A DNA stretch of 63,905 bases, the filler included, from Candidatus Aminicenantales bacterium (lineage in GTDB: Bacteria > Acidobacteriota > Aminicenantia > Aminicenantales > UBA4085), in NCBI GenBank assembly GCA_049515535.1. It is 5 parts of 5 records of this genome, joined end to end, with 100 filler letters (N's around TTAATTAATTAA, not from the genome) between each part and the next. Parts side by side here need not be neighbours in the genome. Positions count along the whole stretch, not along the records: positions 27,887 to 39,773 come from JBEKTZ010000008.1; 4 more parts are not named here. One strand, written 5' to 3'. A program made the translations under genes and the position numbers. Below the pieces are notes generated by a model that saw nothing but the letters and a program-made list of their open reading frames with translations, ran no database searches and was not told the DNA's origin. Below are positions 27,787 to 62,753 of the stretch, in pieces. The first letter of the stretch is position 1; each line of letters opens with the position of its first letter.

Positions 27787-27886
27787 NNNNNNNNNNNNNN
27801 NNNNNNNNNNNNNNNNNNNNNNNNNNNNNNTTAATTAATTAANNNNNNNNNNNNNNNNNNNNNNNNNNNNNNNNNNNNNNNNNNNN
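27787..27886. other. Artificial contig linker
   Basis: N-run around TTAATTAATTAA (stops in all six frames); the same linker occurs four times. Confidence 0.99.
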
Positions 27887-29170
27887 CGTCTTTTCGGCGA
27901 TTCCCGCCGCTTGCTGAGCGGTCCGCTTGAGCGACGCGGCTCCGTCGAGGATTCCGGTTCCGGAATCCTGACGCGCGTCCGTTTCTCCCGGCGCTGAAGC
28001 GATGACGATTCTTGGCGGCAAGTTCGTCTCGTCCAAAGACGTCCCGTCGCACAGGACCATCGATTCATAGATCACGTTCTCCAGCTCCCTGACGTTCCCC
28101 GGCCAGGAATAGCGCCGAAGATGTTCCAGGGCCTTCCCGGAAATGCCCCGGATTTCCTTTTTCAATTCGCCGCCGTATTTTTTGAGAAAATGCTCGCAGA
28201 GCAAATGGATGTCCTCTTTCCGTTCCCTGAGCGGCGGCAGGTGAAGGGGCAGGACGGCGAGCCGGAAATAGAGGTCCTCGCGGAAGCTCCCCTTCCGGAT
28301 TTCCTCGTCCAGCGTCTTGTTCGTGGCGGCGATGACCCGGACGTCCACGGGGATCGTTTTGGTGCCGCCCACCTTGACGATCTCTCGCTCGCCCAAGGCG
28401 CGCAGCAGTTTGACCTGGGCTTCCTGCGAAAGCTCACCGACTTCGTCCAGGAAAATCGTCCCGTGCTGGGCGAGTTCGAATTTTCCGGTCGTCTCCGCCT
28501 TCGCGTCCGTGAAGGCGCCTTTGCTGTGCCCGAAAAACTCGGACTCGACCAGGTCGCGGGGAATCGCCCCGCAATTCACCACGACGAAGGGGCCGTCTTT
28601 ACGAGGGCCCGCGAAGTGGATGGCCCGGGCGACGAGCTCCTTGCCCGTTCCGCTCTCGCCCGTGATCAAGGCCGTGCCGTCCACGCGGGCGATGCGATGC
28701 ATCATCTGAAAGACCGAATTCATCCTGGCGCCGGCGCCGACGATATTGGAAAAGCTGAAGCGCGAGGTCAACTCAGTCTTCAGGACTTCGACTTCGGCCT
28801 CGAGCTTTCTGACCTCGAGCGCCCGCCCGATCATCAGCAGCAGCTCCTCGTTGTCCACGGGCTTCTCCAGGTAGGCATAGGCGCCCAGCTTGGTCGCCTC
28901 CACGGCGCTCTTGATGGTCCCGTAGGCCGTGATGATGAGGATCTGGCACTTCGGGCATTTCCGTTTGATGCCGGACAGCACGTCCAGGCCGGGCCTGTCC
29001 GGCAGATTCATGTCGAGCAGGACGACATCGGGCCCGAAAAATCCGGCTTTCTCCAGCCCTTCGGCCCCGCTCCCCGCGCTCTCCGTGAGATAGCCTTTCT
29101 CGCGGAGGAGGAGAGTGAAAATGTCGCGGATTTTTCTTTCATCGTCGATGATGAGCAGCTTGAATTTCAT
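27887..29170 (-). CDS. Sigma54-dependent response regulator (NtrC/AtoC family), C-terminal HTH cut off by contig end
   Basis: Receiver IIDDE...LLDMNLPD, Walker A GESGTGKE, GAFTDA, FLDEVGE, WPGNVRELEN. Confidence 0.95.
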
Positions 29171-29185
29171 GGCGCGCTTTTTCTT

Positions 29186-30430
29186 TCAATAAAGAGGGAG
29201 GCTGATCAGGACCGTCGTCCCCTGGCCCGGCTTGCTTTTCACTTCAATGTCGCCCTTGTGGGATTTGACGATATTGTAACAGATGGACAAGCCCAGGCCC
29301 GTCCCGCCCTTTTTCGTCGTGAAAAACGGGTCAAAGATCCGGTCCATGGTCTCCTCCAAGATGCCTTCTCCGGTGTCGGCGACGGTGACGACCGCTTTCC
29401 GTCCGTCTTTAAGGAGAGCCTTCACGGTCAACCGTCCGCCGCCAGGCATGGCCTGGAGAGCGTTGAGAAAAACGTTCAGGAACAGCTGTTTGAGCTGGGC
29501 CCGGTCGCCCCGAATGAGAAGCGGCGTCGGCGGGACATCCAGGGAAACGGCGACATTATGCGTTTTGGTCTGAAACGAGACGAGTTCGAGGCTCTCTTCG
29601 ATCGTTTCGCGAAGTTCGTGCCGCTCCCGGACGATCTCCGACGGCCGCGAGAAAGAGAGGAGCGCCGAAACGATCTTGTCGATCCGTTCCGTTTCCTGAA
29701 CGGCGGACTCCAGGAGCTTTCGCGAAGTCTCGTCCTGGCTCTTCGACTCCAGATATTGCAGGGACGAACGGATGGCCGTCAAGGGATTGCGGATTTCGTG
29801 CGCCGCTCCGGCCGCCAGTTCGCCGACGGTCGCCAGCTTGTCGGCCCGGGACATTCGCCGCAACCGCTCGCGCTGCTCTTTAAAGAGGAGCGCGTTCTCC
29901 AGGCCGATGCTGGCCGGCGGAAGAAGCGAAGAGATGAAGGAGATCTCGAGTTTGGTGAACGGCTCGCAGCCCGGCTTCGTGCCGACGAGGAGGATCCCGA
30001 TGAGCCGGTTCATGGAGATCAAGGGGAAAGACATCTCGACGCCGAGCGCTTCGAGGACGTCGGTCTCCTGGCGCACCAAATACTCGAGGACGTCGGACTT
30101 CCGCGACAGGTCCAGATGCGTCTCGTTGACTTTGAGCCATTTCACCAGCCGTGAATTTCTTGCCAGCGAGATCGTTCGGACCTCGTCCTCGGCGGCGTTC
30201 GCCGATGCCGCGCACACGAATCGGCCCGTATCCGCGTCGAAGGTCAGCAGGATGAGCTTGGATTCGGGAATCACCTCCCGGATCTTGCCCAGGAAATTGC
30301 GGGAGATGTGGTCGTAATCTTCGATCAGGTTGACGCTGTCCTCGAACTCCTTAAACGCCCGGAGCGGCAGTTGCTCCCGCTGTTTTTTGCGGCTCAGCGT
30401 CCGCCGGAAAGGAGCGAAGATGCTTTTCAT
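29186..30430 (-). CDS. Sensor histidine kinase (GAF-like + HisKA + HATPase), no obvious TM helix
   Basis: AAHEIRNPL, NALQAM, DTGEGI, FDPFFTTK, GTGLGL. Confidence 0.92.
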   Translation of the reverse strand: MKSIFAPFRRTLSRKKQREQLPLRAFKEFEDSVNLIEDYDHISRNFLGKIREVIPESKLILLTFDADTGRFVCAASANAAEDEVRTISLARNSRLVKWLKVNETHLDLSRKSDVLEYLVRQETDVLEALGVEMSFPLISMNRLIGILLVGTKPGCEPFTKLEISFISSLLPPASIGLENALLFKEQRERLRRMSRADKLATVGELAAGAAHEIRNPLTAIRSSLQYLESKSQDETSRKLLESAVQETERIDKIVSALLSFSRPSEIVRERHELRETIEESLELVSFQTKTHNVAVSLDVPPTPLLIRGDRAQLKQLFLNVFLNALQAMPGGGRLTVKALLKDGRKAVVTVADTGEGILEETMDRIFDPFFTTKKGGTGLGLSICYNIVKSHKGDIEVKSKPGQGTTVLISLPLY

Positions 30431-30536
30431 AGCCGGGGCTCAATCGCTATTATATACCGGGGGATGAGAGCAAACCATCCTTTCCCTCGCTCCGTTTTAG
30501 AGATGAGGCCTTGTGGCCCTTGAGCTTAAAACCTCA

Positions 30537-31934
30537 TTATCGGACGTCATAACGGACGAAGAGGACGAAGCTCAGGAGGAAAGCCAGGCAGGCATACGCG
30601 GCGATGGCGATCAGGAAGGGCATTGCCGGCTTGAGCCGTTCGGAGAAAGACATCGGCTTCTCGATGAACTGGGGAACCGTGGCGAACGCCGCGGGAAGGC
30701 GCGTCGTGGAGACGTCCTCGTTGGGGTTGTACCAGTGCGGGCTCTTGGGATCACCAACGTCGATGGTTTTGAAAAAGGCCAGAAATTGGCCTTGATAGAT
30801 ATGGAAATCGTCCCAGGCCTTGCGATAGCGGGGATAGCCGCCGCCAACCGCCGCTTCCGCAAGGAACTGGAAGAGCATCACGGGCGAAGCGGCCGTCAGG
30901 GAGCGCGTCCGCTCGAACTGCCGGAACATGCTCTGATAGTAGGGATCGCGGATAGACTTCTCGGCGTCCATCCGCTTGCGCTGGAGGTCCGCCCGCAATT
31001 CGTGTTGGGGCAAAAAGGGATTGCCGGAGTTCATCATCCAGCTGCCCGGAGGCGCGGCCTTGCTCAGGTCGTCGAAGACCCGCGTCACCCTGGCCGAGAC
31101 GGATTCCGATTTTTCGATGGGATAGACGGTCTTGGCCAGGAACGCGCTGGAGTTGGGGATGACGACGGCGAAAAGCAGCCAGCACGTGAGGGCCAGGAGC
31201 AGGCTGACGCTGGAACTGCGGGCCGCCACCGAGCAAAAAAGGCCGATCGCCGACAGGACGGCCGCCATCAGGGTAGCGGCGGCCATGAATCCCGCGATCT
31301 CGATAAGGACCGCGGACGTCAGGGGGACCCCGCCCGCCAGGAGGACGATCAGGAGGCTGAGGATGATGCCCGGGACGACGATGGCCAGAAAGGTGAAGAT
31401 GGCGCTCAGGTATTTCCCGAAGAGAAGGGTCCCCCGGGATACGGAATTGGATAGAGCCAGGGCCAACGTTTTATCCTCCTTCTCGCCAGAGATCGCGTCG
31501 AAGGTGAACAGCAGGGCAACGAAGCTCAGGATCATGGCCACGATATAGGACCAGTTCAATTCCTCGAAAGCGTTCAGGAGCGGATTGGTGCTCCCGCTTC
31601 TGTTCAGGAAGGAGAAGACGTTCCAGGCGCTGAAGACGATGCCGTTGGGCAGGTACTTCTCCTTGCCGTCGGTGATGAACGCGTTGTCCCTCGGTCGCAA
31701 GGGATAGGTGCGGCGCGTGACGGCCAGGGAAGTCGCGCTTTGCTCGGCTTGGGTCTTCATTTCGGACCGGAATTGGGTCTCGGCCTGGCGATAATTAGCC
31801 AGGGCGTTGCGGTGGCTTCGGGTGAAGGAAAACGTGCCGGCCACGAAGATGCCCAGGACGAGAACGAGGGAAAGAATGAACCTCAGGCTGTAGAGGTTGT
31901 GCTGGATCTCGCGCTTGAGGATGGTTTTCAGCAT
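30537..31934 (-). CDS. ABC-2-type exporter permease (paralogue 1)
   Basis: TILKREI, DAISGEKEDKTL, LLFGKY, C-terminal RYDVR. Confidence 0.88.
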   Translation of the reverse strand: MLKTILKREIQHNLYSLRFILSLVLVLGIFVAGTFSFTRSHRNALANYRQAETQFRSEMKTQAEQSATSLAVTRRTYPLRPRDNAFITDGKEKYLPNGIVFSAWNVFSFLNRSGSTNPLLNAFEELNWSYIVAMILSFVALLFTFDAISGEKEDKTLALALSNSVSRGTLLFGKYLSAIFTFLAIVVPGIILSLLIVLLAGGVPLTSAVLIEIAGFMAAATLMAAVLSAIGLFCSVAARSSSVSLLLALTCWLLFAVVIPNSSAFLAKTVYPIEKSESVSARVTRVFDDLSKAAPPGSWMMNSGNPFLPQHELRADLQRKRMDAEKSIRDPYYQSMFRQFERTRSLTAASPVMLFQFLAEAAVGGGYPRYRKAWDDFHIYQGQFLAFFKTIDVGDPKSPHWYNPNEDVSTTRLPAAFATVPQFIEKPMSFSERLKPAMPFLIAIAAYACLAFLLSFVLFVRYDVR

Positions 31935-31937
31935 GGC

Positions 31938-33545
31938 TCACCTGACGTCGTAGCGGATGAACGCGACATAGCCCAGATAAAACAGCAGGACAATCTCGAC
32001 GAGGAGCAGGCCGATCCGGGGAATGGTTCCAGCCAGGCCCGCAAGCAGGGAGTCCGCCCGGTCGGGAAATTTGGGCATGTCGGAAATGTCGAGATAGGAG
32101 AAGTCGCCGGGATTGTCGTAGGGGACCTTGACCGTTTGCAGGGCCTGCCAGCGGGCCAGGAAATCCTTCTGTTTCCCGGCCCACTCGTCGTATTCCCGCA
32201 TGGTCTTGAAGCGGCCCCCGGTCCGTTTTTCCACGAGCTGGTCGCCCGTGAGCATGGCCTCGGGAGGGGTGGGCGTGATGTAGCGGAAGGAAGCGAAGAT
32301 GTTCTTGCCCTGGAGATACCGGACGAACGTTTCGCGGTATTGGCGGGCCCTGTCCAGGTCCCGCTCGTGCGACCGCACGTCGGTGGAACAGAGGGCCGAG
32401 GCGATGAGCCGGAACACGCCGGCGGGAGAAACCATGGCGATCCCTTCCGCGACCCGCGATTGATGGACGAGACCGTCCAGGTAGGATTTCTGAGCGGCCC
32501 ATTTTTTATCGGCATAATCGATCAGGAGGGGACCTTCGATAATCGAAGCTAGCCGCTCCTGCTCGAATTTCGATTTCGAGCAGCCGTACGTTTCTCTGTA
32601 GCCGTCGGCCCCCCCGTTCATATACCAATTGATGTCCCAATCTGGCTCGGGCAGGGCCTTCCGGCGATCTTTGAGCTCGCTATCCCTCTCCTTGTCCAAG
32701 TCGGCCAGCACCCGGGTCAGATTTTCCCGTGAAGGCGCCCCGACGAAGCTTTCGGCCGCATACGCGGAGAGGTTGGGGACGATGAAGACTAAGAAAACCC
32801 AGACGAACAGGCAGACAATGAGACTGGTCACCGACGTCCGAGAACGGGCGGAGATGAAAAGACCGATGAAAATGAAAACCGCCAGGTAAACCAGGCTGGC
32901 CCCGAAGAGCAGGGCGATGCGGCCCCATTCCAAGCCGGAGAAGCTTGCGTTCTCGGAAATCAAGACGAGGAAGGCGCTGAGGAGAAAACAGAAGATGAGG
33001 ATCGGCAGGAGCGTCAGCAGAATGCCCAGGACTTTGCCCGCCAGGACCGTGGAACGGCCGAGCGAGTTGGACATCTGCAGCTTCAATGTGCCGCTTTCCT
33101 TTTCCCGGCTGAAGGCGTCGTAGCTGAAGAGAAGCGCCAGGAGCGAGAAGATGATCGCAGCTATGTCCACGAAATCGACCGAGAAAAACGAGGCGAGGAA
33201 GGGATTATCGCGGACCGCCGCTTTTCCCTCGGTCAACAGGGGCTTCTCTCCAAGGAGAATTTTCACGCGATTTCCCAATTGGGATCGGATGCCGTGGCTG
33301 AAAACGCTCAGCGGCTCCGGGGGAAAAACGATCGTCGGCCGTAGACCGGAGTAGACGTAAACCTCCTTCGTGGCCTTGTCCGCGGAATCTCGGTCCTGGC
33401 GATAGAGGACGGATTGATCGCGGTAATCGGAAACGTTGAGGAGGATGCTGAACGGGATGAGGACGAGACAGAGAAGAAAGCCGATGGCGAAACGGGCCGT
33501 GAGCAGGTTGCAAAGAAAGTCTTTCTTGGCGATGTGGTAAATCAT
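31938..33545 (-). CDS. ABC-2-type exporter permease (paralogue 2)
   Basis: IAKKDF, YDAFSREKESGTLKL, LAGKV, C-terminal RYDVR. Confidence 0.88.
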   Translation of the reverse strand: MIYHIAKKDFLCNLLTARFAIGFLLCLVLIPFSILLNVSDYRDQSVLYRQDRDSADKATKEVYVYSGLRPTIVFPPEPLSVFSHGIRSQLGNRVKILLGEKPLLTEGKAAVRDNPFLASFFSVDFVDIAAIIFSLLALLFSYDAFSREKESGTLKLQMSNSLGRSTVLAGKVLGILLTLLPILIFCFLLSAFLVLISENASFSGLEWGRIALLFGASLVYLAVFIFIGLFISARSRTSVTSLIVCLFVWVFLVFIVPNLSAYAAESFVGAPSRENLTRVLADLDKERDSELKDRRKALPEPDWDINWYMNGGADGYRETYGCSKSKFEQERLASIIEGPLLIDYADKKWAAQKSYLDGLVHQSRVAEGIAMVSPAGVFRLIASALCSTDVRSHERDLDRARQYRETFVRYLQGKNIFASFRYITPTPPEAMLTGDQLVEKRTGGRFKTMREYDEWAGKQKDFLARWQALQTVKVPYDNPGDFSYLDISDMPKFPDRADSLLAGLAGTIPRIGLLLVEIVLLFYLGYVAFIRYDVR

Positions 33546-33810
33546 GTCGGGATCTTCCTCAACCTATTCAACTCCAATAATAATCCGCAATCGCGTCTCA
33601 TTATTGAGCAAGTTTCATACCATTTTCAATTCCTGGCCGGAAGAAATGGATGATCCTCTGCATAATGATCAGCTAATCCCGCAAACCCTCGGGGATCTCC
33701 ATTATTCTTGGGAAACGCATTGCCCAACGCCTGGTAAAGTCTTACCCGGTATTCTCCGCGGTATCCGCCTCTCGCCCGATCTTCTTCCGAGACCTCAACT
33801 CGTTTCTTCA

Positions 33811-33826
33811 TGGCACGAAAATTGCT
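33811..33826 (+). promoter_or_regulatory. Sigma54 (-24/-12) promoter of the tolC operon
   Basis: TGGCACGAAAATTGCT matches consensus TGGCACG-N4-TTGC exactly, ending about 80 bp upstream of the tolC ATG; an EBP is encoded in the divergent operon. Confidence 0.9.
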
Positions 33827-33903
33827 CTAAATGTAACCGAAATCGGGCCATTTCGTATTAAAATAAGAAATGTCGGAATCAAGCGATAACGTGGAGAGAG
33901 CGC

Positions 33904-35469
33904 ATGAATAAGTCTTTTTGGAAATTCATTGGATTTCTCGGCGTCGTTCTCCTGGCCGCCGGGACATCCTGGCCACAACAAGAACCGGGCAAACTCGGTC
34001 TGAACGATTGCATCGTCCAGGCCGTCAAGCGGAACCTGGGAGTGGCGGTACAGGTCTACAGCTTCGAGTACTATGACCTGGCCGTTTCCCGGGCGAAGGA
34101 GAAATACCTCCCGGATCTTTCCTTCAATTTCAAGAAGAATAGCCAAAATTCGGCATCGTTCTCCTGGATGGATGCCGCCGAAGTTTCGTCGTCTTCTTAT
34201 TCGAGTTACGATGCAACGCTCAGCCAGGCCATGCCTTTCGGCGGAAAGTTAACGGCCGACCTGAACACATACAAGAACTTGACGAACTCCCGGTTTTCAA
34301 CGATCAATCCAGTTTATAGCGGCACACTGACCTTCTCCTTCCAGCAGCCGCTGCTTCGGGATTTCGGGCTCCAGACGAGCCAGAAGGATATTCTCGTGGC
34401 CCGGAACAGCCTGGATATCGCCGAGAGCGACTTGAAAAACACGCTCCTCGGGACGGTCTATTCCGTCGAGCAAACCTACTGGGAACTCGTGTTGAGCATC
34501 GAATCGCTCAAGGTCCGGCGCCAATCCCTGAAACTGGCCGAGGACCTCCTGGATCAGGACCGGAAAAAAGTGAACATCGGGACCCTCGCTCCCAAGGAAA
34601 TCCTGAGCGTTCAATCCGACGTGGCTTCGCGCAAAGCGGATATTCTCCAAGCGCAGTCGCAGGTCAAAGACTACGTGGACACGTTGAAAACCCTCATCAA
34701 CGCCGGGAATTTGAAGAGCGACGAGGACATCGTTCCGGCCGAAATGCCGCCCTTCGAGAAAAAGGTCATCAGCGTGGATGAGGCTTTCGCCTTGGCTTTG
34801 AAGAACAGGCCGGACCTCCAATCCTCCGATCTCACCATCAAAAACAGGGAATTGGACTATTCCTACGCCAAGAACCAGAGTCTCCCGGCCTTGAATTTGA
34901 ACGCCAGCTATTGGAGCCCGGGCATCTCGGGCGACCGGATCCTCTACCTCGACGACAACCCGCTGACCGGGATCATTTTGGGCAGGGTTCCCGGAGGCGC
35001 GTCCGCAGCCATGCGCGACGCTCTCAATTTCAAATATCAAAACTGGTCCGTCAATCTTTCGCTTGACGTCCCGCTGAACACCGTATTTTCCCGGGCGGCC
35101 CGAGCCCAGGCCAAAACCGCCCTGGACCAGGAATTGGCCCGCCTGAAAAACCTGGAGCAACAGGTTTACCTTGAAATCCGGAAGGCGGTCCGGGGCGTCG
35201 AGACCAATTACGAGAGAGTCAATGCCTACAAACTCGCCCGCGAGCTCGCCGAACAGAAGCTGGCCGCGGAGGAAACAAAGCTCCAGGCCGGGCTGAGCAC
35301 GACATTCGTGGTCCTTTCCTACCAGAGAGACCTGGCCAGCGCTAAGCTGATGGAACTGGGGGCTCTCATCGATTACACGCTTTCAGTCGCCGGTCTGGAA
35401 AAGTCCATGGGCACCGGCCTGGACAAGCATCATATCAAATTGACGGACGCCTTGGAGGTCAAATCATGA
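33904..35469 (+). CDS. TolC-family outer membrane efflux protein
   Basis: Signal peptide; two OEP repeats (QPLLRDFG, YWEL, ALKNRPDL, LPALNL, GLST). Confidence 0.9.
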   Translation: MNKSFWKFIGFLGVVLLAAGTSWPQQEPGKLGLNDCIVQAVKRNLGVAVQVYSFEYYDLAVSRAKEKYLPDLSFNFKKNSQNSASFSWMDAAEVSSSSYSSYDATLSQAMPFGGKLTADLNTYKNLTNSRFSTINPVYSGTLTFSFQQPLLRDFGLQTSQKDILVARNSLDIAESDLKNTLLGTVYSVEQTYWELVLSIESLKVRRQSLKLAEDLLDQDRKKVNIGTLAPKEILSVQSDVASRKADILQAQSQVKDYVDTLKTLINAGNLKSDEDIVPAEMPPFEKKVISVDEAFALALKNRPDLQSSDLTIKNRELDYSYAKNQSLPALNLNASYWSPGISGDRILYLDDNPLTGIILGRVPGGASAAMRDALNFKYQNWSVNLSLDVPLNTVFSRAARAQAKTALDQELARLKNLEQQVYLEIRKAVRGVETNYERVNAYKLARELAEQKLAAEETKLQAGLSTTFVVLSYQRDLASAKLMELGALIDYTLSVAGLEKSMGTGLDKHHIKLTDALEVKS

Positions 35470-36953
35470 AAAAACATGCAACGGTCATCACCGCCCTCAT
35501 CATGCTTTTCGCGGCGGCGATTTTCAGCAATGCCCAGGAATCGCAATCCCAAACGATGAAACTTTTACAGCTGAAAAAGGCCCAGCTCACCCTGGAAAAG
35601 AGCAAGGGCGATTTCGGGCGGTCGCTGAAGCTCAAGGAGGAGGGGTTGACCTCCGAGCAGGAATTCGTCCTGACCCAGACGGCCTATCTTCAGGCCCAGG
35701 TCGACTATCAGCAGGCCTTGATCAGCTTCATGGGCAGCGAGGCGCGGATCTCGGTCGCCAGCGCCGTCAAGTTCCAGGACGTCGGAGGCAAAAAATTCGT
35801 CCGGGTCACACTCCGCTATTCCTCGAAAGAGCTCAAAGAGCTGGCCAAGCTGAATATCAGCGCTGAGGATCTTTTCCCCCTGGACTTCATGAAGGAGATC
35901 AGGGACGTCTCCGTTTCCCTGCGTTCGGAGGGTAAGATCATCTCCGATCCTTACGAAAAGACTATCGCTGGCCTTCCCCTCGAAACGGAGAAGGATGTGA
36001 CCTTCCAGCTCCTCAAGGATGTCGAGAACCTCGATGTCAATATTTTCTATTCGGGAAAGAACGAGATGACCTCGGTCTTCCTGCAGAAGGGCGTGAGCGC
36101 CAATATCGTGACGATCAATTCCGCGCAGTTCTCGCAGGAAGCCGACCTCGAAAGCCAGGCCACATTCGATCTGTCGCTGGAAAAATTTTCGGGTGAAGCC
36201 AACGTCTTCAAGCTCGAAATCGCCAACCTTCCCCACCAGATCAATTATGAGTTCAGCGACCCGACGACCCAGGCCCGGCTGTCGCAGATCAAATTCACGG
36301 AAGGCGTGACCAGCATGAAGCTGTCTTTGAAGCTTTATCTCCCCAAGAACGCCGACGCTCAAATCGTGATCGATAAGCCCATCGAGTTCTACGCCTTGAC
36401 GCTCGACATCGACCAGGCGGCCAAGCTCCAGGACCTCCTGGCCAAAAAGCCTCAAATCGGCCCCAAAGACATCGAGACCTTGAAAGCGGGGAGCGTCAGG
36501 CTCGAACTCCTTCCGCGGGGCGTGGGGAAAATCGAGGTCCAGGCGGTCAACCTTTATCATGAGATCAAGGTCGGCGAAAGCGTCGAAATGAAAGTGACGG
36601 TCAAGAACGCGGGGACGAGGAAATTGAACAATATCCGCGTGTTCGCCGACAACATTCCGCTGAATTGGCGGGCCGAGATCCAGCCGGATCTGATCGCCTC
36701 GCTCGCGCAGAGCAAGGAAGAGATCGTCACCATCAAATTTCTGCCGCCCGCGGACGTCGCTGTCGGCGATTACGAGCCGAAGATAAAAACCGAATGCAGC
36801 GCGGACAACCGCAAAGTGGAGTCCGAGGACAAGATCGTCCGCATCCACGTCGCTTCGAAGACCAACGTCCTAGGGATCCTCCTCCTGGTGTTCCTGCTCG
36901 TCGGTCTGCTCGTGGGGATCGTCGTCTTCGGCATCAAGCTGACGCGGCGATAA
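35466..36953 (+). CDS. Periplasmic protein: adaptor-like alpha-hairpin, Ig-like/NEW3 domains, C-terminal TM anchor
   Basis: Signal peptide; helical hairpin containing RSLKLKEEGLTS; VTVKNAG...PLNW...PPADVAVGDY (NEW3-like); terminal hydrophobic helix followed by KLTRR. Confidence 0.8.
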   Translation: MKKHATVITALIMLFAAAIFSNAQESQSQTMKLLQLKKAQLTLEKSKGDFGRSLKLKEEGLTSEQEFVLTQTAYLQAQVDYQQALISFMGSEARISVASAVKFQDVGGKKFVRVTLRYSSKELKELAKLNISAEDLFPLDFMKEIRDVSVSLRSEGKIISDPYEKTIAGLPLETEKDVTFQLLKDVENLDVNIFYSGKNEMTSVFLQKGVSANIVTINSAQFSQEADLESQATFDLSLEKFSGEANVFKLEIANLPHQINYEFSDPTTQARLSQIKFTEGVTSMKLSLKLYLPKNADAQIVIDKPIEFYALTLDIDQAAKLQDLLAKKPQIGPKDIETLKAGSVRLELLPRGVGKIEVQAVNLYHEIKVGESVEMKVTVKNAGTRKLNNIRVFADNIPLNWRAEIQPDLIASLAQSKEEIVTIKFLPPADVAVGDYEPKIKTECSADNRKVESEDKIVRIHVASKTNVLGILLLVFLLVGLLVGIVVFGIKLTRR

Positions 36954-36991
36954 GGCCACACAGAAAAAGAGTGTCCAAGGGGAGGCAAGAA

Positions 36992-38434
36992 TTGTTTAAA
37001 AATATCGTCCGGAAGGAAATCCTCGAGAACATCTTCAGCTATCGCTTCCCGCTCTTCGCCCTCATCTGCCTCACCCTCGTTCCGCTGAGCCTCTACGTCA
37101 ACAATGTCGACTACGGCAAGCGGTTGAGGGATTACAGCGAACAGATGCGGCTGGCCGACGAGGCCGGATCGTCCATGACGATGAGGGACCTCATGTCCGG
37201 GACGGTCGCCATAAAGGGGTTTCGCCGGCCGGCGCTCCTTTCCGTGTTCACCCAGGGCCTTGAAAGCGCGATGCCGAGGTTCTACGAGTTCACGCAGGAC
37301 GGGGTCAAGCCCGGCGAATCCTCGAGCGGCGACGAGTCGGTCCTCTCGGTCCAGGGGAAGGTCGATTTCGTTTTTCTCGTCCAGATGGTTCTCTGCCTGA
37401 TCGGGCTATTATTCGCTTCGGACATGATCTCTGGCGAAAAAGAAACGGGAACGCTCCGGGCAATGCTCTCGAACAGGCTCCCCCGGGATACGATCCTCAG
37501 CGGCAAGATCGCCGGAGGCTTTCTGGCGCTTTGGCTGCCGTTCGGCCTATCGTTCATCTTGGGAGCCCTCCTTCTTCTTCCGGGGTCCTATCCATTTTTC
37601 GGCGGCGATACGCCGGCCCGCATCCTGGTCATCCTGCTCGCCACGTCCTTTTTCCTCCTCATATACTACATCCTCGGGATGGCCGTCTCGACTAGTTCGG
37701 CGAAAAGCCGGACGTCGGCCATTGCCATCCTTCTTATCTGGGCCTTTTTTCAATTGATTGCCCCCAAGCTGAGCGGGATGATCGCCTCGGTCGTCTATCC
37801 CATCCGGACGGAAACGGCTGTCTCGCTCGAAAAATCCCTGCTGGCCAAGTCGATCGACACGGAAACGGCGAAGGAATTGGGCCGGCAATATGACCTCATC
37901 TTTGGAGTCGGGCGTCAGGGGACCGCCGACGATGAAAAGTCGCCGGAGAGAAAAAAATGGGACACGGCCAAGAGCGACATCGAACAGAGCGCTCGAGACC
38001 GGAAAGCGCTGGAGGTAGGCCGGATCGACGAGACCTACCAGCGGGAAAAACGAAGGCAACAAACTCTGGCCGTGAACATTTCCCTGGTATCCCCGAGCGC
38101 GGCCTTCGCCCGATTGATCGCCGATGTCTGCGGAACGGGCGAGGTCGAACGAACGAAGTACGCGGAAGCCGTGCTGGCTTACCAGAAAGCCCTCGACAGC
38201 GAGCTGTTCAGCAAGGTCAAACGCACGATCATGATCCATCCAAGCGGCGGGACCACGCTGGGGTTCATGACGCTGCCCGTGGATTTCAAGAAGCTGCCGA
38301 AATTTTCCATGGCGCCGTCGTCGCTGGCGGAGGTTTTCAAAGCCAATGGAAACAGCCTGGTCTCGCTCGTGTTCTGGCTGATTGCGCCGTTCGCGGTCGC
38401 CTATGTCCGATTCCTGAAATACGACGTCCGGTGA
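36992..38434 (+). CDS. ABC-2-type exporter permease (paralogue 3)
   Basis: TTG start at 36992 after GGGAGG (MFKNIVRKEI); DMISGEKETGTLR; C-terminal KYDVR. Confidence 0.87.
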   Translation: MFKNIVRKEILENIFSYRFPLFALICLTLVPLSLYVNNVDYGKRLRDYSEQMRLADEAGSSMTMRDLMSGTVAIKGFRRPALLSVFTQGLESAMPRFYEFTQDGVKPGESSSGDESVLSVQGKVDFVFLVQMVLCLIGLLFASDMISGEKETGTLRAMLSNRLPRDTILSGKIAGGFLALWLPFGLSFILGALLLLPGSYPFFGGDTPARILVILLATSFFLLIYYILGMAVSTSSAKSRTSAIAILLIWAFFQLIAPKLSGMIASVVYPIRTETAVSLEKSLLAKSIDTETAKELGRQYDLIFGVGRQGTADDEKSPERKKWDTAKSDIEQSARDRKALEVGRIDETYQREKRRQQTLAVNISLVSPSAAFARLIADVCGTGEVERTKYAEAVLAYQKALDSELFSKVKRTIMIHPSGGTTLGFMTLPVDFKKLPKFSMAPSSLAEVFKANGNSLVSLVFWLIAPFAVAYVRFLKYDVR

Positions 38435-38473
38435 GGACATTCTAAGAATGAATTTCATATTTGGGAGGATACG

Positions 38474-39214
38474 ATGAGTCAACAAAAACTGTACTTGAAG
38501 GCCGACGACCTCTCGAAGAGGTACGAGGACGGGGTCCTGGCCCTGGACCATCTGAACCTGGAGGTCCGGGCGGGCGAGGTCTATTGTCTTCTCGGTGCGA
38601 ACGGCGCGGGTAAAACCACCACGATCAACCTTTTCCTGAACTTCATCCCGCCGACGACGGGAACGTGCTATATCAACGGCATCGACGTAACGCGCGACCC
38701 TCTCGAAGCGAAAAAATACGTCGCCTTCGTCTCCGAGAACGTCATGCTCTACGGCAATTTCACCGCTCGGCAGAACCTCGACTTTTTCGCCAAGCTGGGC
38801 GGCAAAACGGATCTCGGCAAAGCGCAGTATTACCAGGTCATGCGCCGGGTCTCGCTTCAGGAAAAAGCGTTCGAGCAGCGGGTCAAGAATTTCTCCAAGG
38901 GCATGCGGCAGAAGCTCGGGATCTCGATCGCCATCATCAAAAATGCGCCGGCCATCCTCCTCGACGAGCCGACGTCGGGGTTGGACCCGAAAGCGGCGGA
39001 AGAATTCTTGGAAATCCTGGCCGAGCTGAAAGGCGAGGGCAAGGCCATCCTGATGTCCACCCACGACATTTTCCGGGCCAAAGAGATCGGCGACCGCGTC
39101 GGTATCATGAAGGAAGGCCGGCTGGTCATGGAGCGGACCCGCGAAGAGTTGCAGTACGAGGACCTGGTCAAGATCTACATCGATTACATGAAATCCGAAC
39201 CCTTAACGGCGTAA
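38474..39214 (+). CDS. ABC transporter ATP-binding protein
   Basis: GANGAGKTT, FSKGMRQK, LDEPTSGLDP, STHD. Confidence 0.95.
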   Translation: MSQQKLYLKADDLSKRYEDGVLALDHLNLEVRAGEVYCLLGANGAGKTTTINLFLNFIPPTTGTCYINGIDVTRDPLEAKKYVAFVSENVMLYGNFTARQNLDFFAKLGGKTDLGKAQYYQVMRRVSLQEKAFEQRVKNFSKGMRQKLGISIAIIKNAPAILLDEPTSGLDPKAAEEFLEILAELKGEGKAILMSTHDIFRAKEIGDRVGIMKEGRLVMERTREELQYEDLVKIYIDYMKSEPLTA

Positions 39215-39301
39215 AGACAAAAGACCGGAGGCCGGGCCGCCGTGCCGTCCGGCGAAGGATCGGGATAGCCGCGAGCCGATGCCTTCAAGGAGAGGGAAAA
39301 C

Positions 39302-39773
39302 ATGCTGAAAACCATCATCAAAAAAGAGATCCTGGAAACCATCACCAGCGCGAAGTTCGTCTTTACCTTCCTGCTCTGCGCCGTCCTCATCCTTCTTTCG
39401 GTTTACACCGGCCTTTCCAACTTCCGGGCCGACCAGAAGGAATTCACCGCGGCCGTGTCCCTGAACAAGAAAAACCTGGAAAACCAGTCGAGCTACACGT
39501 CCCTAGCCGACTTGGGAACGAAGATTAATAAGGCGCCCCAGGTTCTAAGCGCCATCGCAAGCGGCGTGGATGAAGCTGTCGGCCGCGTCGCGACGGTCAA
39601 CGTTAAATACGATCCCAATTTGGTCGATTCGAAATACGGGAGCAATCCCGTGTTCTCGGTCTTCGGCGCGCTCGATTTGACCTTCATCGTCAAGATCGTG
39701 CTCAGCCTTTTCGCCATCCTCTTCACCTACGATGCCATCGTCGGCGAAAAGGAAAGAGGCACCTTGAAACTGA
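39302..39773 (+). CDS. ABC-2-type exporter permease (paralogue 4), truncated by contig end
   Basis: TIIKKEI, YDAIVGEKERGTLKL. Confidence 0.87.
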
Positions 39774-39873
39774 NNNNNNNNNNNNNNNNNNNNNNNNNNN
39801 NNNNNNNNNNNNNNNNNTTAATTAATTAANNNNNNNNNNNNNNNNNNNNNNNNNNNNNNNNNNNNNNNNNNNN
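39774..39873. other. Artificial contig linker
   Basis: N-run with TTAATTAATTAA. Confidence 0.99.
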
Positions 39874-40112: not shown

Positions 40113-40581
40113 ATGACTAAACCAAAAGGAAACTATCAAGGGACAGTTCTTTGTTGGTATATGTTTAATTTGGTTTTACCCTTAATACCTTTTGTCATTG
40201 CTGGTATTATTCGTCTAACAATATTTGAACATTTCGATATTAAGCTCGCTACATTTAAAGCTTCAGATTTAGCTATATCAATGGGGATACAATCAATTTT
40301 GGTAAGTCAAAGCATCTTAAACTATCCGAGATTACTTGATAATCCAAATAAGAGAAGAGATGCCCATAATAAATCGTTTGTGTTTTTAATTATGGCGCTT
40401 GTATTTTTTTGTTTTATTTATACTTTTTGAATTTTTTTCCCTTCTTTATGAAAAAACAGCCCAAGAATATGCAAATTCTGCTCAAGATACTTTACAAATT
40501 ATAACCTTTATTTTGTTTATAGTTATGTTACGACATATTTTTCAAATCCAAAAGTCGTTTAAGCTCAAGGCAGAATGGTGA
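40113..40581 (+). pseudogene. Hypothetical ~155 aa multi-pass membrane protein split by a +1 frameshift in a T7 run
   Basis: ORFs 40113-40430 and 40399-40581 fuse if one T is removed from 40404-40410; about four hydrophobic segments; AT-rich. Confidence 0.65.
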
Positions 40582-41624
40582 TTAGAAAATTTCTAATTTT
40601 GTTAAATCGAGATAAAGTTGCATCTCTGGCAATGTTGGGCTTTTTAATTTTTATTACTGGATTATTATCGTCTTTACCTATTTTTTCTAATTCCCATAGC
40701 ACTTTTGAAAACATCTTATCAAAAATATTGATTTTATTTGGTGCCATGCTATTTGGTGTAGCTTTATTTTTTAATTTAAATCGAAGTACTCCACGAGCAT
40801 ATAATATCGCAATTATTGGATTTCCTCGTTCAGGAAAAACAACCTTAATCACATCTCTTTTTAAAGAAATTTTCGCTACGAGAATAATTGGAGTTAAAGC
40901 TGCCCCGAGGGGAAGCACAACTATAGAAAGAATTAATGAAAATATGGAAAAACTCGAACGCGGAAGGGCAATTGGGCCCACAGAAGATCAAACAAGATTT
41001 TCTTATGCAACAAATATATCAATAAAAAAGGGGCTGTTTACTACTTATTATAAAGTCGAATTTGGTGATTTTCCCGGCGATGACACCGAGAAGTATGTGA
41101 ACAAATATGGCGATTGGCTACATAAAACTGAATTTTTTCAATGGGTTATGGAATGTGATGCTCTAATATTTGTAATTGATTTAGCGGAATATTTGAAAAA
41201 TTACAATATAAATAATGATTATATTTCCATTATTTCTAAAGCTGTTCGTGCTGCTTGGCAATATTACTATGAATTTAATAGGCTCCGAATTAAAAGCTCT
41301 GAATTAAGAAGAAGACCTATTGTATTGACTTTTACTAAAGTAGATTCAATTGAAATATATAATAAATATTCTTCTTCACGAAATAATTATCAGCAGGCTT
41401 TAATGGAAAATAGTTTTGGCAAATTAGTACCATCGGTCCATGAAATCGATCCAGATAATATTATTGAATGCAAAAAAATCGTTTTAGATGATTTTTCGGA
41501 GTTAATTAAATATTTACAAAATGAATCAAATAATTTTCGTTTTGTATTTACTAGTTGCTTTGGCACAATAAATGGCAAAAAAATAGGTATGGAAGATCTT
41601 ATAAGTTCAATATTCCCATCGTAA
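40575..41624 (+). CDS. Membrane-anchored TRAFAC-class P-loop GTPase
   Basis: Two N-terminal hydrophobic helices; G1 GFPRSGKTT, G2-like GPT, G3 DFPG, G4 TKVD, G5-like TSC. Confidence 0.85.
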   Translation: MVIRKFLILLNRDKVASLAMLGFLIFITGLLSSLPIFSNSHSTFENILSKILILFGAMLFGVALFFNLNRSTPRAYNIAIIGFPRSGKTTLITSLFKEIFATRIIGVKAAPRGSTTIERINENMEKLERGRAIGPTEDQTRFSYATNISIKKGLFTTYYKVEFGDFPGDDTEKYVNKYGDWLHKTEFFQWVMECDALIFVIDLAEYLKNYNINNDYISIISKAVRAAWQYYYEFNRLRIKSSELRRRPIVLTFTKVDSIEIYNKYSSSRNNYQQALMENSFGKLVPSVHEIDPDNIIECKKIVLDDFSELIKYLQNESNNFRFVFTSCFGTINGKKIGMEDLISSIFPS

Positions 41625-42035: not shown

Positions 42036-42248
42036 TTTTGTCCTCAATTTTGTCCACACGGCGGAAGGGGCTGTCTATTCAGGCCTCTGGACGGTCACGT
42101 CAGAGGTCGTGAGTTCAAGTCTCGTCGGCTCCGCCATTCAAATCCCTTATAATCTGAAGGATACGTTCTATTCCGCGCAGTTTTCCTTTCCGCTCCAATA
42201 CCGTAGTTTACCCGCTTTTCAATCGAATCTGTGACATATTTGTGACAT
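42036..42248. repeat. Short direct repeats flanking the att core (arm-type integrase site candidates)
   Basis: ATTTTGTCC twice at about 42035-42055 and TGTGACAT twice at 42230-42237 and 42241-42248. Confidence 0.55.
42094..42136 (+). other. 3' fragment of tRNA-Asp(GTC), probable att core of an integrative element
   Basis: GTCACGTCAGAGGTCGTGAGTTCAAGTCTCGTCGGCTCCGCCA gives the anticodon, T-arm, acceptor 3' strand and CCA. The upstream sequence cannot form the 5' half. Confidence 0.85.
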
Positions 42249-60530: not shown

Positions 60531-60630
60531 NNNNNNNNNNNNNNNNNNNNNNNNNNNNNNNNNNNNNNNNNNNNTTAATTAATTAANNNNNNNNNNNNNN
60601 NNNNNNNNNNNNNNNNNNNNNNNNNNNNNN
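60531..60630. other. Artificial contig linker
   Basis: N-run with TTAATTAATTAA. Confidence 0.99.
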
Positions 60631-62653: not shown

Positions 62654-62753
62654 NNNNNNNNNNNNNNNNNNNNNNNNNNNNNNNNNNNNNNNNNNNNTTA
62701 ATTAATTAANNNNNNNNNNNNNNNNNNNNNNNNNNNNNNNNNNNNNNNNNNNN
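62654..62753. other. Artificial contig linker
   Basis: N-run with TTAATTAATTAA. Confidence 0.99.

Follow-up and report, generated by a model that had tools for sequence, protein, structure and literature searches.

A candidate envelope-spanning ABC-2 exporter with an atypical putative adaptor, encoded by a sigma-54-linked locus of an uncultured Aminicenantales bacterium

Introduction

How might an ATP-binding cassette (ABC) transporter be connected to the outer membrane when its genes lie beside a TolC-family gene and none of the familiar adaptors is encoded nearby? The question is raised by a locus of Candidatus Aminicenantales bacterium (assembly GCA_049515535.1) that occupies positions 27887–39773 of an analysed stretch of 63,905 bases, hereafter the window. 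Its two divergent operons bring together a TolC-family outer-membrane protein (OMP) gene, a gene for a protein with a helical hairpin and immunoglobulin (Ig)-like domains, several ABC permease genes, an ABC ATPase gene and the genes of a two-component system. Tripartite pumps are thought to require an adaptor of the HlyD/membrane fusion protein (MFP) family. An earlier interpretation made from the sequence without database searches (the sequence-only reading) described the locus as a type-I-like secretion or efflux machine, and gene calling and Pfam searches find every gene that it listed in the two operons where it had placed them.

On balance we lean, by a modest degree, towards reading the locus as an inducible, tripartite-like, envelope-spanning exporter of the ABC-2 type, in which the hairpin and Ig-like protein would act as the adaptor to the TolC-family channel and pairs of permeases would be swappable. 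The considerations behind this reading are drawn from sequence comparison and structural models. The adaptor candidate is considered first, followed by the permeases, the outer-membrane partner, the conservation of the locus and its regulation.

Results

The gene at the center of the proposal lies at 35466–36953 on the plus strand and encodes a protein of 495 amino acids (aa), which we call the hairpin-Ig-TM protein, TM denoting a transmembrane segment. It begins with a leader (residues 5–23) followed by SNA-Q, and it ends in a transmembrane helix (468–494, with a hydrophobic core at 468–486) followed by the basic sequence KLTRR. Between these, an AlphaFold2 model computed from a 75-sequence alignment (mean pLDDT 94, pTM 0.76) has two helices, approximately residues 24–58 and 64–90, that form an N-terminal alpha-hairpin, and then about four beta-sandwich domains, the last of which is the Pfam domain NPCBM_assoc/NEW3. 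Because the leader ends in SNA-Q, the signal peptide is probably cleaved, and the hairpin would then be the end of the protein farthest from the inner membrane.

Both sequence-profile and structural comparisons relate this hairpin to the hairpins of MFPs. When the family profile was searched against the Protein Data Bank (PDB), 7 of 16 matches were MFP hairpins, aligned at profile positions ~23–96, with E-values of 2.1e-4 for TriAB, 3.8e-3 for MexJ, 8.3e-3 for ZneB, 0.012 for 4l8j, 0.046 for MacA, and 0.12 and 0.34 for AcrA. Likewise, a structure search with residues 23–90, independent of Foldseek, matched 4l8j (Z 11.1), MexA (Z 11.0), EmrA (Z 10.1), AcrA (Z 10.0) and a MacA chimera (Z 9.9); the MFP-hairpin superpositions extend across 66–68 residues with a root-mean-square deviation (rmsd) of 1.4–2.1 and 17–21% identity. 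Furthermore, R52, L56 and S63 flank the turn at the tip of the hairpin and match the pattern RxxxLxxxxxxS, defined as the RLS motif, through which MacA, AcrA and MexA bind TolC and of which HlyD has a variant (PMC3391258). In the 75-sequence family alignment the arginine is present in 52 sequences, the leucine in 66 and the serine in 53. Among 44 such proteins from the loci that were fetched, the motif is intact in 38, comprising 20 of the 20 linked to an OMP gene and 18 of the 24 others, and the remainder carry conservative variants.

An alpha-helical hairpin with an RLS tip is a feature that the protein shares with MFPs, and we rejected membership of that family on grounds of sequence, none of 75 family members matching a HlyD-type Pfam model at E <= 0.1, and of architecture. 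The hairpin lies at the mature N-terminus, with the chain running linearly onward and never returning through lipoyl and beta-barrel domains, and the membrane helix is C-terminal, with no N-terminal membrane helix or lipid anchor. A Foldseek search with the whole model returned only generic tandem-Ig proteins (integrins, HYDIN-like proteins and alpha-2-macroglobulin) at TM-scores of at most 0.33.

The hairpin-Ig-TM protein belongs to a sizeable family whose annotation to date extends only to that of NEW3-domain proteins. A scan of 1.84 billion representative proteins recovered 564 clusters at 50% identity (E <= 1e-3), of which 193 also pass E <= 1e-30, and the matches are mostly full-length. 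All members seen come from uncultured groups, namely the Aminicenantes, other Acidobacteriota, the Latescibacterota (by one cluster name) and, as a lead, the Zixibacteria; the genomes examined are all from diderm groups. One member, P0230 (892 aa), is a natural fusion of a permease with a hairpin protein, and its topology is consistent with such a fusion. No further fused form was found at E <= 1e-10 among 7999 candidates, which is itself weak evidence, and P0230 remains a lead. Taken together with the adjacency of ATPase genes described below, this fusion makes the MFP-like hairpin protein look like a subunit of the transporter. The longer members P0141, P0143, P0156 and P0177 contain additional tandem copies of the first beta domain, amounting in P0141 (718 aa) to about four repeats of a unit of ~110 aa, and the length of the stalk therefore appears to vary within the family.

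Four permease genes lie in the window. On the minus strand are permease B (465 aa, 30537–31934; PF12679 7.3e-34, six TM segments, orthogroup B) and permease A (535 aa, 31938–33545; PF12679 7.2e-27, with a DUF3526 insert at 3e-06, orthogroup A). On the plus strand are permease C (487 aa, ~36971–38434, from a probable GTG start; PF12679 5.6e-29) and the first 157 codons of permease D (39302–39773; PF12679 6.7e-12), which is cut at the contig end and is predicted below to continue on contig C26. All four score above the PF12679 cut-off. Between C and D lies the gene for ABC ATPase 1 (246 aa, 38474–39214, plus strand; ABC_tran 1.1e-26), which is of the DrrA/ABC-2 type, its match to TIGR01188 (5.7e-57) being below that model's cut-off.

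Searched against solved structures, a profile of 69 permease sequences has NosY as its sole match (E 2.6e-17). The AlphaFold2 model of permease C (pLDDT 92.5, pTM 0.88) gives the same result, superimposing on NosY with Z 25.7 and an rmsd of 2.7 over 254 of 267 residues (Foldseek TM-score 0.77, target-normalised), compared with Z 18–21 for ABCG/ABCA exporters, 15.3 for CcmB, 14.6 for PmtCD, 12.7 for KpsM and 7.8 for MacB, and with E > 0.3 for chains of the MsbA/PCAT type. From these sequence and structure matches, the permeases are NosY-like ABC-2 (type V fold) membrane domains. We rejected a type I, HlyB-like assignment because these are PF12679 ABC-2 permeases with a separate ATPase and there is no fused PF00664 half-transporter, and a MacB-like (type VII) assignment because no FtsX or MacB_PCD match was found and MacB scores so far below NosY. 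The type-I-like secretion machine of the sequence-only reading therefore does not survive as a class assignment.

Other features that had been read from the permease sequences do hold. The three complete permeases end in YDVR (RYDVR in A and B, KYDVR in C), and in the 69-permease alignment the final arginine is invariant and the aspartate at least 90% conserved. They also have the large loops that had been described, hydropathy giving six TM segments with ~90 aa between TM1 and TM2 and ~200–250 aa between TM5 and TM6. In the model, what extends beyond NosY is a longer TM1, a small beta-sheet and a helical TM5–TM6 insert of ~200 residues that includes a helix of 47 residues. This insert is the DUF3526 region, and by the usual topology of ABC-2 proteins it would be periplasmic; a structure search with residues 262–372 gave only generic helical matches (Z ~7).

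In a FastTree phylogeny of the 69 permeases, which carries no support values, neighboring permeases fall into distinct orthogroups that recur as pairs (A/B, A-like/B-like, E/F, X1/X2 and Y1/Y2), and the orthogroups C, Z and G/D occur singly. The number of permeases per locus ranges from 3 (L022) through 5–6 (L015, L026, L008, L010) and 7 in the locus described here to at least 9 (L017), ATPase genes number one or two throughout, and the operon of permeases A and B is itself without an ATPase gene. Judged by gene content, that is by these pairs and counts, the arrangement fits heterodimeric membrane domains that draw on shared ATPases. The earlier proposal of interchangeable or heteromeric permeases is likewise in keeping with adjacent, phylogenetically distinct pairs whose number varies among genomes.

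The TolC-family gene (33904–35469, plus strand) encodes an outer-membrane factor of 521 aa with two OEP repeats (PF02321 2.1e-39) and a hydrophobic N-terminal leader, a signal peptide without a lipobox cysteine; the repeats and the signal peptide together place it in the TolC/OEP family. Among named models it matches TIGR01844 (1.3e-30), and the TolC and NodT models are all below cut-off. Its stop codon overlaps the start codon of the hairpin-Ig-TM gene (ATGA), as in 13 of the 18 relatives in which the two genes lie on the same strand. The genome contains 12 OEP genes, and that of the locus is one of three with no PF16576 adaptor within 3 kb. A genome-wide search for canonical HlyD-type adaptors returned 14 PF16576 matches, every one on another contig. 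The observation that no canonical HlyD/MacA adaptor is visible has thus been sustained: there is none in the locus, and the downstream DNA that has since been recovered holds permeases and an ATPase only.

The conservation of the locus was examined in 33 close loci from a collection of one genome per species, with architectures assigned by blastp with the proteins of this locus. A recurring order emerges, in which the genes for the enhancer-binding activator, the histidine kinase, permease B and permease A are followed, across the divergent promoter region, by the OMP gene, the hairpin-Ig-TM gene, in some cases a permease, ATPase 1, one or more permeases and permeases E and F, on which ATPase 2 and permease G converge. 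This gene order and the associated promoters bear out the idea of a conserved unit with sigma-54 and two-component genes. An ATPase gene adjoins the hairpin-Ig-TM gene or lies within two genes of it in 29 of the 33; of the other four, L016 and L024 end too early and L031 and L033 have the hairpin-Ig-TM gene alone. The OMP gene lies directly upstream of the hairpin-Ig-TM gene in 19 of the 33, and another gene does so in 9, this being ATPase 2 in five (L023, L027, L028, L030, L032); the three of these whose sequence extends far enough, L023, L028 and L032, have a minimal operon of permease, ATPase and hairpin protein. The remaining cases with another upstream gene are L014, L031, L033 and L034, and in L007, L012, L021, L025 and L035 the contig end is too near for a call.

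Farther afield, the family profile finds the hairpin protein in 27 of 301 genomes of a phylum sample (18 of 186 genera). In 11 distant neighborhoods, whose 122 open reading frames (ORFs) were scanned with Pfam, an ATPase gene is adjacent in all 11 and PF12679 permeases are close by in most. The co-occurrence of tolC, hairpin and permease genes, on which the sequence-only reading had staked its case, therefore stands in one part: the hairpin protein accompanies ABC-2 genes in 29 of 33 close loci and, by its ATPase, in 11 of 11 distant ones, and the TolC-family gene accompanies them in 19 of 33 and 0 of 11. Linkage to TolC is confined to the Aminicenantes subgroup.

Two loci that depart from the pattern are worth noting. 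L031 (9995-12503) and L033 (9995-11476) have no ABC genes within 10 kb of the hairpin-Ig-TM gene; one of the two genomes is Candidatus Aminicenans sakinawicola, and in L031 the gene adjoins genes for a DUF1573/HYDIN-like Ig protein and a DUF6305 protein.

The locus itself runs past the end of its contig. It is the final 11,887 bases of contig C8 (C8:168173-180059) in a genome of 3.45 Mb in 32 contigs, 94% complete, from an uncultured peat bacterium; close homologues carry the label Candidatus Aminicenantes. When PF12679 was searched across the genome, contig C17 proved to open with a permease N-terminus whose gene runs past the contig edge, and contig C26 (4,948 bp) to have two permeases close to its start. 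Both ends of C26 are permease C-terminal halves in inverted orientation, of 245 aa apiece and sharing 93% identity, and the N-terminus of permease D at the end of C8 is 93% identical to that of permease G at the start of C17, the final 127 nt of C8 being the reverse complement of the C17 start. The assembly evidently broke here because D and G are a recent duplicate pair; judged from the 470-aa orthologue in L032, about 70 codons of each are missing. Along C26 the order is a D-type C-terminus, permease E and permease F and, on the opposite strand, ATPase 2, which shares 65% identity with ATPase 1, and a G-type C-terminus. The same convergence of permeases E and F on ATPase 2 and permease G is found in L008, L009, L010, L013, L015, L026, L029 and L077, and L005 has the same inner order as far as ATPase 2, where the fetched stretch ends. 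The inner gene order of the relatives supports a path from C8 through C26 to C17, with joins predicted from synteny, and on this path the complete locus would comprise seven permeases and two ATPases. The count of one ATPase and four permeases given earlier is right for the window and falls short for the predicted whole.

The suggestion that a cargo gene lies beyond the contig end was not borne out, since the sequence there adds three permeases and one further ATPase, followed by non-conserved genes (one for a tricorn-type protease and one for a beta-eliminating lyase). Two ORFs without a family and glycosidase-like genes lie upstream of the activator and are likewise not conserved neighbors. 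No linked gene for a secreted substrate, RTX or similar, was found in the window, in the 8 kb upstream, on C26 or at the start of C17, and none is conserved in the relatives.

The regulatory genes are those of an NtrB/NtrC-type pair. The activator gene occupies 27887–29170 on the minus strand (Pfam Sigma54_activat 2e-66, Response_reg 5.9e-26 and AAA_lid); the window holds codons 1 to ~428, the 3′ end being lost at the spacer, and the full-length gene (L002:7997-9397) encodes 466 aa, HTH_8 included. The histidine kinase gene (414 aa, 29186–30430, minus strand) matches HisKA (1.9e-16) and HATPase_c (3.4e-27). The hydropathy profile of the kinase shows no hydrophobic or membrane segment, so the signal that it senses is probably cytoplasmic, and sensing through the permeases in the manner of Bce systems was set aside on the same ground. 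The N-terminal 185 aa are GAF-like in appearance, as judged by eye only.

The sigma-54 promoter reported before tolC is confirmed as an exact match to TGGCAC-N5-TTGCT, TGGCACGAAAATTGCT, at 33811–33826 on the plus strand, 77 nt before the ATG of the OMP gene. Taken alone, the match is no more than chance would give in the window (one observed, 0.93 expected, and at least one in 59 of 100 shuffles), so its weight derives from its position and its conservation: of the 19 relatives that have both the OMP gene and DNA upstream of it, 15 carry an equivalent element there. A second element of the -24/-12 sigma-54 type, TGGTATGAAACTTGCT, lies at 33607–33622 on the minus strand, 61 nt upstream of permease A. 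It is kept in 11 of 11 relatives in which permease A faces the OMP gene and is absent in the four loci where the kinase gene faces it. Across 487,795 bp of related loci a loose sigma-54 pattern has 44 matches, 27 of which fall within the 19 intergenic regions.

Between the two promoters is a pair of tandem palindromes, GGGAAACGCATTGCC at 33710–33724 and GGTAAAGTCTTACC at 33733–33746, with starts 23 bp apart. The pair, of the type GGGTAA-N-TTACCC, is a conserved block in an alignment of 12 intergenic sequences and, with the 23-bp spacing, is unique to this locus in the genome. It may be the activator binding site common to both promoters. With an activator that combines receiver, AAA+ and HTH_8 domains, a kinase, -24/-12 promoters and rpoN, which is present in the genome, the locus has the predicted makeup of an NtrB/NtrC-type sigma-54 regulon.

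Elsewhere in the genome, two palindrome-like sequences that resemble the proposed activator site, GGGAATTCCATTTACC and GGGAATTCTGCTTACC, lie 48 bp apart at C2:173927 and 173975. Upstream of permease G on C17 no sigma-54 element was noticed by eye. A genome scan of the kind that had been suggested returned 26 sigma-54-like sites, the majority of which precede genes whose products are secreted or belong to the envelope, and tied none of them to the activator; examples are C4:126686 and C24:1630, and two near-identical type IV pilin-like genes are among the targets.

Discussion

The gene content, promoters, folds, motif and co-occurrence that are established above can be assembled into a mechanism, for which we infer all binding, stoichiometry, transport direction and substrate. 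The soluble kinase would detect a cytoplasmic signal and phosphorylate the NtrC-type activator, which would occupy the tandem palindrome between the operons and fire both sigma-54 promoters. The NosY-like permeases would form dimers, mostly between the two products of an adjacent gene pair, and these would sit on a common ATPase dimer. The 495-aa protein would serve as a fixed subunit of the transporter, held in the inner membrane by the helix at its C-terminus, with its Ig-like stalk running beside the helical periplasmic domains of the permeases and its MFP-like N-terminal hairpin docking by the RLS tip on the TolC-family channel. A substrate taken from the membrane or the periplasm could in this way leave the cell, the likeliest classes being amphipathic small molecules, lipids and peptides.

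Several observations weigh against an exporter of this kind. The hairpin is matched weakly by profile (E 2e-4 to 0.3), helical hairpins with no relation to it (those of F-BAR, ROP and a designed protein) reach Z 9.3–10 in the same list of structural matches, and for long helices a Z below ~13 may, by the structure search's own warning, reflect a common arrangement. Among the 75 family members none matches a HlyD-type or MFP Pfam model at E <= 0.1, and nine weakly match the OEP model. The Pfam scan of the 11 distant loci found no OEP gene within ~6 kb, the minimal operon of permease, ATPase and hairpin protein in L032 has no OMP gene, and the hairpin and its RLS motif are equally conserved where no OMP gene is nearby. 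This last point means that the hairpin could serve another role; docking to a channel encoded elsewhere also fits, given that this genome alone has 12 OEP genes. In addition, no cargo or biosynthesis gene is conserved at the locus, and the solved relative closest to the permeases belongs to a system, NosFY, that is not known for moving a substrate across the membrane and instead drives a periplasmic partner (PMC13685413).

The main alternative is a mechanotransducer like NosDFY, in which ATP would be spent on work in the hairpin/Ig partner in the periplasm, for example handing over, assembling or extracting a component of the envelope, with the TolC-family gene as a lineage-specific passenger or as a servant of another step. 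That NosY is by far the closest solved relative of the permeases is what one would expect of such a device, all the more as NosDF2Y2 works by ATP-driven changes in, and movement of, its periplasmic partner (PMC13685413). So is the fact that hairpin protein, ATPase and permease stay together as a core in the absence of a linked OMP gene, as in the distant loci and in the minimal operon of L032. Against these points stand the MFP-like hairpin with its RLS tip, which is conserved family-wide, and the ATGA coupling to the OMP gene in most of the same-strand relatives. Moreover, because the genomes are diderm and this one has OEP genes in plenty, an unlinked channel would be available wherever the OMP gene is missing, and scans of the locus proteins found nothing like NosD, NosL or NosZ. 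We regard this alternative as unlikely, though one to be taken seriously.

Closer to the exporter that we favor, and in effect a substrate-specific version of it, is a pump for self-protection or immunity against membrane-active peptides or natural products, of the LanFEG, PmtCD or DrrAB type, in which the permease pairs would represent different specificities. The best named models for the ATPase are DrrA (5.7e-57) and a lantibiotic-protection ABC protein (1.8e-44), both below cut-off, and PmtCD is among the structural matches of permease C (Z 14.6). Some neighborhoods in other lineages also point in this direction: in L034 (923-10721) and L076 the cluster is interleaved with radical-SAM/SPASM, B12-radical-SAM and Lnt-like genes, and in L073 (3874-13103) its neighbors are a radical-SAM gene and genes for a sigma-54 activator and a C39-peptidase ABC exporter. 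Neighbors of this sort may hint at a peptide cargo. The Aminicenantes loci, however, have no conserved gene for a precursor peptide or a maturase, and the soluble kinase lacks a membrane sensor domain, unlike those in peptide sensing of the Bce type. We consider this version improbable.

Export of a polysaccharide or glycolipid in the manner of KpsMT-KpsE, with the hairpin/Ig protein as a co-polymerase-like adaptor and the OMP in place of the outer-membrane polysaccharide export (OPX) protein, is very improbable: the helical region of KpsE matches the hairpin (Z 9.6, rmsd 1.4, 63 residues aligned), KpsM matches the permease (Z 12.7) and the C-terminal Ig domain is from a family present in glycosidases, but KpsM is far below NosY (25.7), the locus has no conserved gene for a glycosyltransferase or an OPX protein, and the match scores are in the range flagged as a common arrangement.

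It is informative to set the favored exporter beside known systems. The nearest in plan is MacAB-TolC, which like the locus is ATP-driven, has a TolC-family exit duct and a periplasm-spanning adaptor whose alpha-hairpin ends in an RLS tip, and takes up its substrate from the periplasm or outer leaflet, as we propose here. The components differ: MacB is an FtsX-type permease with four TM segments, and MacA, a canonical MFP, is anchored at its N-terminus and has lipoyl, beta-barrel and membrane-proximal domains, whereas the putative adaptor of the locus consists of a hairpin, an Ig stalk and a C-terminal anchor and is accompanied by many permease genes per ATPase. The nearest in its membrane component is NosDFY(L) of Pseudomonas stutzeri (PDB 7o0y, 7znq), which shares the permease fold and sequence, the separate ATPase and a dedicated periplasmic partner. 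The locus differs from it in lacking the NosD beta-helix, NosL and NosZ among the proteins scanned, on which ground we rejected membership of the NosDFYL copper-delivery system, and in having the DUF3526 insert, a partner with an Ig stalk and an MFP-like hairpin, a linked TolC-family gene, sigma-54 control and multiple permease paralogues.

Other systems share single aspects of the arrangement. The adaptor YbhG of Escherichia coli YbhGFSR is a canonical HlyD-family protein, and no such protein is encoded in the locus. YbhGFSR is described as a pump of the ABC-2 type that combines two distinct permeases with an adaptor in the periplasm (PMC7190983). KpsMT-KpsE-KpsD (PDB 8tsh) resembles the locus in joining an ABC-2 transporter to the outer membrane through a non-MFP adaptor, although the resemblance is weak by the helix and permease scores given above, and it differs in its co-polymerase adaptor, its OPX partner and a polysaccharide made by linked biosynthesis genes, none of which is seen here. 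In group II energy-coupling factor (ECF) transporters, and with ATPases of the MsiK/MsmK type, a few ATPase genes serve many membrane subunits. Those are importers with unrelated membrane components, and sharing in our locus is suggested by gene counts only.

These comparisons permit a more specific proposal, which we advance tentatively and to which we give somewhat less than an even chance. The hairpin-Ig-TM protein may represent a new class of periplasmic adaptor, in which a TolC-docking hairpin on an Ig stalk is built into a NosY-like ABC-2 transporter, with the permease pairs as exchangeable, substrate-specific modules on one ATPase and one adaptor/TolC conduit, an ECF-like logic switched through sigma-54 by a cytoplasmic signal. 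In the literature searched, which did not cover subscription papers, we found no description of such an adaptor type or of DUF3526 or NEW3 proteins as partners of ABC-2 transporters, and the text of a 2026 adaptor review has no mention of ABC-2, YbhG, C-terminal transmembrane, atypical or immunoglobulin. The novelty would be one of adaptor architecture and of permease class and logic within tripartite efflux pumps.

If the proposal is correct, the TolC-docking hairpin would be a portable module that keeps its tip motif when carried on another scaffold and anchored at the opposite end, and more types of transporter would be able to reach the outer membrane than the MFP-based pumps suggest. A widespread and unstudied family of 564 clusters would acquire a function, and the DUF3526 insert of NosY-like permeases an explanation. 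Sets of permeases numbering from 3 to at least 9, served by one or two ATPases, would likewise constitute a new route by which the specificity of exporters diversifies, and the system would bear on how these uncultured host groups cope with their environment.

Additional observations

The window consists of five contig pieces (C2:1-27786, the tail of C8, and all of C20, C27 and C31), and the joins at 27787–27886, 39774–39873, 60531–60630 and 62654–62753 are spacers, N's around TTAATTAATTAA, that do not come from the genome. ORFs that enter these spacers are artefacts of the joining, an example being a 443-aa form of the activator at 27839–29170. The truncation of the activator at 27887 is for the same reason without biological cause, whereas that of permease D reflects a true contig end.

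At the start of C20 (39875–42300 of the window) an integrase-core (rve_3) fragment at the contig edge is followed by an island of 30% G+C. Within the island, the ORF at 40575–41624 encodes a membrane-anchored, GTPase-like protein with weak matches to MMR_HSR1 and DO-GTPase. Near 42080–42140 there is a stretch that resembles the 3′ end of a tRNA, for which ARAGORN made no call, and the region as a whole looks like a mobile island sited on a tRNA remnant.

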